A stretch of DNA of 64,000 bases from Prorocentrum cordatum. Lineage: Eukaryota. The stretch's first letter is position 1. Each line of letters starts with the position of its first letter. Positions 29,601 through 32,600 of this stretch are shown in pieces. The position numbers were made by a program, and so were the translations under genes. The stretch spans positions 186,001 to 250,000 of the forward strand of contig CAUYUJ010000225.1 in assembly GCA_963575745.1 (NCBI GenBank), in the 5' to 3' direction. The notes below the pieces were generated by a model. That model had not been told where the DNA came from. It did not search any database and worked only from the letters and a program-made list of their open reading frames with translations.

Positions 29601-32600
29601 GCAATGGCGGCACGGGAGGCGGCCCAGAAACCTAGAACAGAACTCCCATCCACCTCCTCTCCGCGTGCAGCAGCCGCGACGGGAGGCCTTTCAGTCTTCG
29701 GCCTCTGGGCACCCTCCCTGGGCCCTGGGACCGTCAAGAGACGACCCAGGAGGAAGAACCGGTCCCAGAAACGGGAAAGAGGTCCAGAGCTCCAGGGGTC
29801 GATTTTGTGGAACGGTCACGATATCGGAGCTCTGGGTCCGCAGGGCAGACTCGTTCAATCTCGGCGTTTTCCATAGACTGTGGCCCCCGGGAGCCGTTCG
29901 CGGTCTCGCACCCTCCTCGACTTTCGATCTCTAGGAGGAGCTGGTGACCCCCCGACCCCCCTCGGTGCTGCCTGGGGCTCGGCTTCTCGCCCCGGGCAAA
30001 CCTTACCCTGACAGCCCACAGGGGCGCAAAGCCAGCCTCGGGGGGGCGGACAAAGTGCAAACAGAGGCCTCGGGTTCGATGTTCCCGAAGCCGCGGCAAG
30101 GCAAGCCGCCCGCGGAAGGGCCTCCCGAGGAGCCGAGGGGCCTCCGAGGCCTCCTCGAGAGCCCCCCGCGCAGGCCGACGCCGGGTGCGGTCCGTCCGCT
30201 GGTTGGGGGGAGAGGAGGAATTGGAGGAGGAGGAGGAGGAGGAGGAGGAGGAGGAGGAGAGGAGGAGAGGAGGAGGAGGAGGAGAGGAGGAGGAGGAGGA
30301 GGAGGGGGAGGAGAGAGACTGGAGGGGGAGGACTGGAGGACTGGAGGACTGGAGGACTGGAGGACTGGAGGACTGGAGGAGGAGGAGGAGGAAGAGGAAG
30401 AGGAGGAGGGAGGAGGAGGAGGAGGAGGAGGAGGAGGCGAGGAGGAGAAGGAGGGGGAGGAGGAGGAGGAGGAGGGAAGAGGAGGAGGAGCAGGAGGACA
30501 GTGGGGAGGAGGATGAGGAGGAGGAGGAGGGAGGAGGAGGAGGAGGAGGAGGAGGAGGAGGAGCAGGGAAGGGGAGAAAGAGGAGGATGGGCAGGAGGAG
30601 GAGGACTGGAGGAGGAACAGGAGCAGGAAGAGGAGCAGGATGAGGAGGAGGAGGAGGAGGAGGAGGAGACTGGAGAAGGAGGGGGAGGAACAGCTGGAGG
30701 AGGAATAGGAGGAGGAGGAGGAGGAGGAGGAGGAGGAGGAGGAGGAGGAGGAGGGAGAAGGAGGAGGAGGACGAGGAGGAGGCGGAGGAGGAGGGGAGGA
30801 GGAGAAGCAGGAGGAGGAGCAGGAGGAGAGCAGGAGCAGGAGGAGGAGGAGGAGGCGGAGCAGGATGAGGAGCAGAAGGAGCAGGAGGAGCAGCAGGAGG
30901 AGCAGAGGGAGGAGGAGGAGCAGGAGGAGGAGGAGGAGGAGGAGCAAAGAGGAGGAGGACAGGCGGAGGAGGAGAGGAGGAGGAGCAGGAGGAGGAGGAG
31001 GAGAGGAGCAGCAGGAGGAGGAGCAGGAGGAGGAGAGGAGGAGGAGGAGGAGGAGGAGGAGGAGGGGAGGAGGAGGAGAGGAGTGGGGAGGAGGAGGAGG
31101 AGGAGGAGAGGAGGAGGAGGAGGAGGAGGAGGAGGAGGAGGAGGAGAAGGAGCAGGAGTCATATGCCAGGCATATCAAAATGAGTGCAACATAAGTCAAC
31201 ACAAGTGCTCATATCTGGTCTAGGACTGAGTATGCCCAACTATTCGGGCACCCCGGGTCCAGTTCGCCACCAGCGTTTCGGCGTGTGGTTGGCCATCCTC
31301 TTCAGGACCTGCCACAACCAACCGCACGGGGCAGGCCGACGCTGACACGAACGACTTTTTGGCCTTCAAAGAAGGGAGGCAACAACTGCCCCCTCTTTCG
31401 TGACACCGTCGGCATCTGGCAGCTTGGCCGCTGATGCCCCCTCTTTCCTTGTGACCCCCCGCCCCCGTGACCAGAGCACTGACTGGAGCACAGGACGGCG
31501 GAGCCAACTTCGTATCCCGATTCACGGGCACCACAATCAGAGCGTACGTGTGAAGCCCCCTCTTTGGTAAAGCGACCGCTGATACAACTCTGGCTGATGG
31601 GAAAAAAAGGCTGTGGCTGCTGACCGAAAACGAGGAAGACGAGCTCCTGCAGAGCTTCGGCTGATAACCAATCATTTCCCAGGCATATCAAAATGAGTGC
31701 AACATAAGTCAACACAAGTGCTCATATCTGGTCTAGGACTGAGTGTGCCCAACTATTCGGGCACCCCGGGTCCAGTTCGCCACCAGCGTTTCGGCGTGTG
31801 GTTGGCCATTGTCTTCAGGACCTGCCACAACCAACCACACGGGGCAGGCCGACGCTGACACGAACGACATTTTGGCCTTCAAAGAAGGGATGAAACAACT
31901 GCAGGAGGAGGAGGAGGATGAAGAGGAGGAGCAGGAGGAGGAGGAGGAGGAGGAGGAGGAGGAGGAGGAGGAGGAGGAGGAGGAGGAGGGGCAGGAGGAG
32001 GAGGAGGAGCAGGAAAAGCAGGAGGAGCAGAAGGAGCAGGAGCAGGAGGAGCAGGATAAGCAGGAAGAGGAGGTGGAGGAGGAGGAAAAAGGAGGAGGAG
32101 GAGGAGGAGGAGGAGGAGCACCAGGAGCAGGAGGGGAGGAGGAGGAGGAGAGGAGGAGGAGGAGGAGGAGGAGGAGGAGGGAGGAGGAGGAGGAGGAGGA
32201 GGAGGAGGAGGAGGGGGGGGAGGAAAAGGAGGAGGAGGAGGGGAGGATGAGGACGAGGGGGATGATGATGATGATGATGATGATGATGATGATGATGATG
32301 ATGATGATGATGATGATGATGTGATGATGAGGAGAGGAGGAGGAGGAGGAGGAGGAGGAGGAGGAGGAGGAGGAGGAGGAGGGGGAGGAGGAGGAGGAAA
32401 AGGACGACGAGGAAGAGGATAATTGTTTGAGCTCGCCGCCCGGGCAGCCTCGGTGAAAAAGGATACAGCAGCGGCGGCTGGGAAACCACTGCTGGCAGTG
32501 AGGGAGACCTCACTGACCGAAAGAGTACCTCCAGCAGCCCCATGGGCTAGGAGGCACTGGCCACACGACGGGCGACCGCCCCGTGGTCAGAGCAAGAGAA

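Follow-up and report, generated by a model that had tools for sequence, protein, structure and literature searches.

The stretch analysed here, referred to throughout as the window, comprises 64,000 nucleotides of the Prorocentrum cordatum assembly GCA_963575745.1 (contig CAUYUJ010000225.1, positions 186,001 to 250,000 of the forward strand; coordinates below count from the first letter of the window). Its subject is a 744-bp block at 31159-31902 that splits a (GGA)n microsatellite tract totalling about 1.46 kb. The block consists of a 231-nt repeat, a 282-nt unique centre and a second 231-nt repeat, i.e., about 1.45 head-to-tail units, and each repeat carries a sequence with the shape of a type III hammerhead ribozyme. 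The sense strand of the element is the minus strand, and the locus is composed of the following parts (TRF, Tandem Repeats Finder; PPT, polypurine tract; PBS, primer-binding site):

30212..31158, no strand assigned: left (GGA)n microsatellite, the insertion target; TRF gives (GAG)n, period 3, 313 copies
31159..31389, minus strand: repeat copy A, 231 nt, the downstream (3') repeat in the minus-strand sense
31399->31389, minus strand: purine tract GAAAGAGGGGG, PPT-like, abutting the start of the downstream repeat
31390..31671, minus strand: non-coding centre of unique sequence, 282 nt; contains short internal motifs, no Pfam match on its open frames
31659..31670, minus strand: PBS-like TGGTTATCAGCC, 1 nt after the upstream repeat
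31672..31902, minus strand: repeat copy B, 231 nt, the upstream (5') repeat in the minus-strand sense
31903..32419, no strand assigned: right (GGA)n microsatellite; TRF gives (AGG)n

Repeat search and alignment show that the two direct repeats are 96% identical, with nine differences, and that their starts lie 513 nt apart. This agrees with a preliminary description of the locus as regards the spacing of the repeats and their embedding in (GGA)n, but corrects their length, given there as 224 bp, to 231 nt. No second copy of the 744-nt block is present in the window, where BLAST returned the block itself and matches of at most 19 nt. A short direct repeat occurs on both flanks. Read on the minus strand it is CTCCT, at 31907-31903 and 31158-31154; read on the plus strand it is alternatively GCAGGAG, at 31152-31158 and 31901-31907. 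The probability that randomly chosen flank positions match by chance is 0.11 over 5 nt and 0.07 over 7 nt, and inside a microsatellite such a repeat is consistent with a target duplication, no more. The element has no poly(A) and no clear target duplication, and the ends of its repeats are GCAG...ATGA, not TG..CA. The simplest reading is that a mobile unit was inserted as one piece into the microsatellite. On the minus strand, the centre (31390-31671) is made of short recurring motifs, with AAAGAGGGGGC present three times and ATCAGC(C/G)G four times, and the minus-strand open frames 31223-31687 and 31305-31721 have no Pfam match. A plus-strand sense was considered and rejected, there being no TGG after 31389 and no purine tract before 31672.

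In both repeats the minus strand reads, in this order, CAGCGU-C, an 8-bp stem I with a 16-nt loop, CUGAAGA, 19 nt, GAAA and CGCUG, with ACGCUG closing stem III. The conserved hammerhead core, i.e., CUGAAGA, GAAA and GU-C, is thereby present in the right order in both copies. Stem I is formed by GGCCUGCC and GGCAGGUC (8 bp including one G-U), and stem III, which is the open one, by nine pairs, six Watson-Crick and three wobble, again in exact register in both repeats. A descriptor scan of the window finds just these two sites, with stem I/II/III lengths of 8/2/9 in copy A and 8/0/9 in copy B:

31271..31344, minus strand: hammerhead-like motif A; C17 at 31338, CUGAAGA at 31299-31305, GAAA at 31276-31279
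31330-31337 with 31306-31313, minus strand: stem I of motif A, 8 bp
31297-98 with 31280-81, minus strand: stem II of motif A, 2 bp (GG/CC)
31784..31857, minus strand: hammerhead-like motif B; same core and same stems I and III, C17 at 31851, positions 10.1/10.2 reading CA

Among 400 dinucleotide shuffles of the window, a stem I of at least 5 bp together with a stem III of at least 4 bp was encountered 12 times, the combination of at least 6 and at least 5 bp once, and that of at least 8 and at least 6 bp in none. By extrapolation we estimate one motif of such quality in about 10,000 windows, and a far lower frequency inside a given 231-nt repeat. The repeats, the insertion and the geometry of the motif are real and not a chance pattern. 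The components listed in the preliminary description (the CAGCGU/ACGCUG stem III, the GUC triplet, the 8-bp stem I, CUGAAGA and GAAA) are all confirmed on the minus strand of both repeats, and the arithmetic of its predicted product is right as well: with C17 at 31338 and 31851, the product would run from 31850 to 31338, comprise 513 nt and span the whole central region.

The motif is carried by the terminal repeats, and the unit that they bound forms a clean interruption of a microsatellite, a layout that fits both retrozymes and the pseudo-LTRs (LTR, long terminal repeat) of Penelope-like elements (PLEs). The retrozyme- or PLE-like architecture proposed earlier, with terminal direct repeats that bear a hammerhead-shaped motif on one strand and an insertion as a unit, is accordingly retained as a description of the block. 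As its explanation we tentatively favor, at a probability of roughly 0.45, that the family to which the block belongs possesses a genuine but atypical hammerhead within a retrozyme-like element, for which self-cleavage is predicted. The block would then be an old, partly decayed copy of a family of short non-coding, non-autonomous retroelements hosted by a marine protist, probably a dinoflagellate, and would have been inserted into the (GGA)n microsatellite as approximately 1.45 head-to-tail units (231/282/231 nt). Each repeat would contribute a hammerhead-type three-way junction on the minus strand, which at the family level would probably be a real type III hammerhead, albeit an atypical one in which stem II has 2 bp and loops I and II are complementary by Watson-Crick pairing. 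Such a hammerhead may trim longer-than-unit transcripts to RNAs of about 0.5-0.6 kb, which could circularise and subsequently be reverse transcribed into DNA by an enzyme provided in trans. We infer the self-cleavage, the circularisation, the RNA intermediate and the kind of reverse transcriptase from sequence and layout.

Parts of the block are present in 20 of 24 listed public sequencing runs, from 13 studies; eight of these 20 are RNA libraries, and the top run has a 0.27 share of the sampled words. Except for three coded organisms, the labelled runs with relatives are all marine, plankton or freshwater metagenomes. Four runs (X1, X3, X4 and X10) were examined, all as contigs, and contigs that are 85-99% alike span 31164-31869 in these four runs; none of the contigs extends over the (GGA)n flanks, but 31120-31163 and 31892-31940 were masked as repeats, and the apparent boundary at 31164 carries no weight. 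A 625-nt contig (record 20 of X4, a run guessed to be DNA) proceeds from repeat to centre to repeat, which makes the repeat-unique-repeat order common to the relatives. Large parts of the block are also covered by two contigs from RNA libraries of two studies (X1 record 6, 455 nt; X10 record 9, 501 nt). The likeness of X3 record 12 stops at 31270, precisely where stem III has its base. Two conserved 22-mers, used for exact scans, had no match in metagenome, viral or genome contig collections.

The 625-nt contig, which extends from 31271 to the equivalent of 31300, was at one stage read as a circular contig with a k-1 overlap; this was withdrawn because its ends are the variable sites 31270 and 31301, 31 nt apart, and branching of the assembly graph fits equally. 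Likewise, a joint that 'goes back 515' was rejected as a circle junction, as it represents a repeat aligned to its other copy. The contigs examined thus gave no junction evidence of a circle. Relatives contain 78 or 117 extra letters at 31355/31356 (and at 31868/31869), with recurring GTTTCCGACTG at the edges, and this module is either missing from the window copy or gained by the relatives. A 58-nt piece of the centre (31453-31510) is found in more contigs than elsewhere in three of the four runs (X3, X4 and X10), where the sequence on either side of it is unlike, in the manner of a small independent repeat that other elements also contain.

The relatives form a mosaic, with breakpoints at 31355/31356 and around 31453-31510, and this bears on the view that the block arose by an event at the DNA level. 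Recombination or repair would then have placed part of a 0.5-0.6-kb tandem satellite into the microsatellite, perhaps by way of an extrachromosomal circle, and with no RNA intermediate. The mosaic structure would be expected from such a capture, as would the 1.45 units of a unit that is head-to-tail also in another sample (X4 record 20), and the want of a poly(A) and of a clear target duplication. We nevertheless regard this origin as quite improbable, since it gives no account of the hammerhead-shaped motif, the relatives are found in RNA libraries, and a 5-7-nt flanking direct repeat is present, weak as it is (chance 0.07-0.11).

For the hammerhead itself, which is central to the explanation that we favor, a number of observations have to be counted on the opposite side, and they are presented here together with the competing view to which most weight has to be given. 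According to that view, which we consider a doubtful but substantial candidate, the block is an ordinary short terminal-repeat or tandem element (TRIM-like or satellite-like) without a ribozyme; the hammerhead is a non-functional look-alike or a dead relic, and the structure of importance, if there is any, is a long imperfect hairpin. The hammerhead families of Rfam 15 yielded no match at the gathering threshold on the 64 kb and none at E<=10 on 861 nt or on 91 nt; there is accordingly no covariance-model match at any threshold tried, and this is the outcome that the preliminary description had named first as speaking against it. The Rfam matches listed, at 9.6-13.3 bits, are to unrelated families, and other ribozyme classes have no Rfam match on either strand.

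The statement that each repeat folds as a type III hammerhead is not borne out either. In both copies the minimum-energy (MFE) fold is a rod with no three-way junction, formed via pairing between the two loops: on the minus strand, 'loop 2' of motif A (31282-31296) is complementary to 'loop 1' (31314-31328) over 15 nt, with a loop-loop duplex energy of -18.7 kcal/mol in copy A and -22.6 kcal/mol in copy B. For nested structures, i.e., with pseudoknots ignored, the energies are as follows:

Copy A: MFE rod -34.2 kcal/mol, hammerhead stems enforced -22.3
Copy B: MFE rod -34.9 kcal/mol, hammerhead stems enforced -24.1
Majority variant (31324 G>A): MFE rod -38.1 kcal/mol, hammerhead stems enforced -22.3

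The rod, at -34 to -38 kcal/mol versus -22 to -24 (z = -2.55 for copy B), is what the absence of a ribozyme would lead one to expect. Hammerhead-compatible nested folds are 12-16 kcal/mol less stable and have an equilibrium share of 1e-9 to 1e-12, and addition of a 6-bp loop contact (-7.7 kcal/mol) makes the gap to the rod smaller but does not close it. In folding of the nascent chain, stem I is the minimum-energy structure at 49-73 nt, but is displaced from 77 nt onward, before the 3' strand of stem III is made. Full pairing of the 15-nt loops would furthermore be geometrically incompatible with the active fold, since G12 would then come to lie close to the apex of stem I, where the active core cannot form; a pseudoknot compatible with that core could have no more than about 6-8 of these pairs. 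Compared with 90 control segments taken from the window, the predicted 513-nt circle shows no gain in folding stability (z = -0.65).

Stem II, which the preliminary description did not mention, points in the same direction. In copy A it consists of G10.1-C11.1 and G10.2-C11.2, perhaps with an additional 3-bp UGG/CCA hairpin. Copy B has no stem II, the minus strand there reading CA at 31810-31811, and stem II is missing also in one RNA-run contig, in which these positions read 'at'. Positions 10.1/10.2 consequently occur in three states (GG, CA and AU) with a constant, uncompensated CC at 11.1/11.2; seven contigs over 31297-31298 list no variant there and apparently keep GG. Because the upstream motif has lost its stem II, the copy at this locus is probably no source of a 513-nt RNA, and the release of such a monomer from here, as proposed earlier, is unlikely; with a repeat divergence of 4% and a broken upstream motif, the locus is probably inactive. 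The listed variants within the motif (31286, 31297-98, 31301 and 31324) include none in stems I and III or at fixed core positions, and one of them, 31301 T>A in one relative, changes the free core position N7 to give CUGAUGA, while 31799 T>C falls into loop 2; the list omits differences near contig ends, and the invariance of stems and core is therefore weak evidence. No stem pair covaries, stems I and III being invariant among the listed variants, a list that is incomplete near contig ends. The commonest variant, 31324 G>A (four contigs), perfects the competing helix and makes the rod stronger, and the two variable sites within that helix, 31286 and 31324, are partners in one base pair of the rod. 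The presence of relatives in contigs from RNA libraries, finally, is no proof of transcription.

Chance has to be considered on both sides. At an estimated 1e-4 per window, the approximately 250,000 windows scanned would leave a few chance motifs somewhere, which is in keeping with a look-alike; two stems and 13 core bases in joint register are, however, very unlikely in a given 231-nt repeat, and the motif is on the same strand as the layout of purine tract and PBS-like site. The changes at 31286 and 31324 are CpG/TpG transitions, for which no structural reading is needed. Moreover, a 2-bp stem II combined with loop complementarity is a published form of the hammerhead, in the portion of PMC3088659 available to us.

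The ribozyme is kept alive as an explanation because published hammerheads include ones with a stem II of 1-2 bp and loop-loop pseudoknots. As stated in the accessible portion of Perreault et al. 2011 (PMC3088659), stem II of natural hammerheads is commonly 2 bp and in one case 1 bp, about 40% of natural hammerheads have a Watson-Crick pseudoknot between loop I and loop II, and in the example with a 1-bp stem II a 6-bp pseudoknot is essential for fast cleavage. By analogy, copy A is of the general form of these short-stem-II pseudoknot hammerheads: like them, it has the full core and a stem II of 2 bp, and its stem I and stem II loops are complementary to each other by Watson-Crick pairing. 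It differs from them in that the complementarity comprises 15 nt, compared with 4-6 bp in theirs, and starts right beside stem II, on account of which full pairing excludes the active fold. A further difference is that stem I is 6 bp longer than stem II.

Plant LTR retrozymes were reportedly described by Cervera, Urbina and de la Pena in 2016. According to the sections of PMC9695139 and PMC5680766 at hand, LTR retrozymes have two LTRs of approximately 300-400 bp, each with a hammerhead, as well as a polypurine tract beside the 3' LTR, a 4-bp target-site duplication and a circular RNA of unit length, and in the latter source putative retrozyme-like tandem hammerheads are mentioned for algae and oomycetes. 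The present element is similar in being short and non-coding, in having a type III-shaped motif on the same strand of both terminal repeats, in the purine tract beside the downstream repeat and in a predicted product that contains the whole centre. It is unlike them in the length of its repeats (231 nt versus 300-400) and of the element (744 bp versus 1-1.5 kb), in a target duplication that is indeterminable within a microsatellite, in a motif that fails RF00008 and whose stem II is 2 bp or missing, the upstream motif being the one without it, and in having a protist rather than a flowering plant as host. The polypurine tract lies beside the 3' repeat and on the same strand as the hammerhead motif, but the tract is interrupted in one relative (31394 T>A), and the purine motif AAAGAGGGGGC recurs three times in the centre, which weakens the LTR reading, as do the short repeats and the ends that are not TG..CA. 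The PBS is approximate and is not conserved in the relatives: the TGG of the PBS-like site is GGG in two of three relatives' contigs (the X1 and X4 contigs have 31670 A>C, X3 record 18 lists no variant), and TGGTTATCAGCC resembles the plant PBS only with an indel. No tRNA genes for matching of the PBS occur in the window.

Elements of the TRIM type total less than 1 kb and have terminal direct repeats of 100-250 bp. Like TRIM and SMART elements, the block is smaller than 1 kb, has direct repeats at its ends and a short centre without coding sequence, and would, as proposed here, depend on a reverse transcriptase provided in trans. TRIMs differ in their clear tRNA-Met PBS, TG..CA ends and want of a ribozyme, whereas here the ends are GCAG...ATGA and the PBS-like site is weak. 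Both TRIM and SMART are named as small non-autonomous LTR retrotransposons in the available part of PMC5680766.

The same evidence leads to the question of element class, which cuts across the other readings. A non-autonomous element of the Penelope-like (pseudo-LTR) or non-LTR-retrozyme type, in place of an LTR-type retrozyme, would have as its 'LTRs' a 5'-truncated partial tandem generated by target-primed reverse transcription, and the purine tract would be coincidental. This concerns the class of the element and is compatible with the ribozyme of the explanation favored above. In the portions of PMC8557442 consulted, PLEs are described as having partial tandems, a strong microsatellite bias and undeterminable target duplications, and their non-autonomous derivatives were once mistaken for LTR elements. 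The block agrees with this in its 1.45 units placed inside (GGA)n, i.e., a head-to-tail partial tandem as apparent LTRs with insertion into a microsatellite, in being a non-coding, non-autonomous unit, and in carrying the hammerhead motif in its repeated part. Repeats of 231 nt rather than 300-400 nt and the GGG in the relatives argue likewise for a Penelope-type element, as does one X4 relative in which the likeness is lost at 31674 (equivalent to 31161), from where it enters a GTC-rich simple repeat.

The hammerheads of PLEs and of metazoan non-LTR retrozymes are, however, of type I with a minimal stem III (bioRxiv 10.64898/2026.07.22.740005 and PMC8557442, in the parts accessible), unlike the type III motif with its long, nine-pair stem III observed here. 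Nor is there a PLE open reading frame (reverse transcriptase plus GIY-YIG) in the window, where the sole reverse transcriptase-like remnant resembles a long interspersed nuclear element (LINE), has an EEP domain and shares no common sequence with the block (BLAST within the window); 'dinoflagellate', 'Symbiodinium' and 'alveolate' do not appear in PMC8557442. A Penelope-style origin fits as well as an LTR-type one, and as a specific assignment we consider it somewhat unlikely.

The retrozyme-like reading can be extended to a dinoflagellate lineage of non-coding partial tandems of about 0.5-0.6 kb, with a preference for microsatellites, a type III hammerhead whose 2-bp stem II is propped by a pseudoknot and which would toggle to an inactive rod, and circular RNAs in marine metatranscriptomes; as a whole, this scenario is speculative and rather unlikely. 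The openly accessible literature that was searched contains no retrozyme report for dinoflagellates and no hammerhead ribozyme report for Symbiodinium, in line with the earlier remark that no description of such an architecture in dinoflagellates was known to its author. If the extended scenario is true, the element would join a ribozyme of the type found in plant LTR retrozymes to a Penelope-like style of insertion, and would be the first mobile element with a self-cleaving ribozyme described in alveolates. Cleavage by the motif would extend retrozymes, i.e., genome-encoded ribozyme circles, to dinoflagellates, with their very large genomes shaped by retroposition, in a form that mixes features of both known retrozyme classes. 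It would also provide a natural switch between ribozyme and rod, and a candidate source of the viroid-like circular RNAs in ocean RNA surveys. Without cleavage, the block would count as just another short repeat of a genome rich in repeats, and would be a useful warning that two good stems and a full hammerhead core can be present where no ribozyme works.

The surroundings of the element were surveyed by a Pfam search of 208 of the 257 open frames of at least 130 aa in the window, 49 low-complexity frames having been dropped. The matches among the 208 frames comprise a weak RVT_1, a weak EEP (endonuclease/exonuclease/phosphatase) and a few weak low-complexity or tandem-repeat matches; GIY-YIG, integrase and gag have none, and no host gene or intron was identified in these frames. 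The LINE-like remnant (40463-45273, minus strand), about 9 kb from the element, consists of a 1292-aa frame with a weak EEP match (E=0.002) and a following frame with the weak RVT_1 match (E=0.00098), the two being separated by a frameshift. A 21-mer, CCGTAGCCGTTTTGGCTGAAG, at 45006-45026 on the minus strand differs by two mismatches from what we take to be the dinoflagellate spliced leader, and 0 of 100 shuffles match. It lies close to the 5' end of this LINE-like frame, a position that suggests retroposition of a transcript that had once been trans-spliced. The 21-mer, the GC content of the window and the presence of relatives in marine plankton libraries together make a dinoflagellate host plausible. 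A second candidate for a relic spliced leader, CATTTTGGCCTTCAAAG at about 31866-31882 on the plus strand, was rejected, since it requires three indels and is absent from mismatch searches.

The window, with a GC content of 61%, consists mostly of repeats, and the LINE-like remnant is its only Pfam-supported gene. Tandem arrays of 88-90 bp are located at 10976-11190, 51364-52725, 56652-56972 and 59711-61450, with at most 19 copies and up to 99% identity; they appear to have one common consensus (GGGGTGTGCCGAAATGG...CTTCGGTGGAGCTCCC...CCACGAAACGTGTGA), and one array has the opposite orientation. Minisatellites with periods of 334, 73, 101 and 64 bp are found at 336-1258, 3931-4414, 55405-56287 and 62993-63872, respectively. 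In addition to the (GAG)n tract at 30212-31158, trinucleotide microsatellites of 0.7-0.9 kb occupy 5688-6567 (ATC), 20176-21109 (TCA) and 27974-28640 (ATC), a density of long trinucleotide microsatellites that is unusual for 64 kb.

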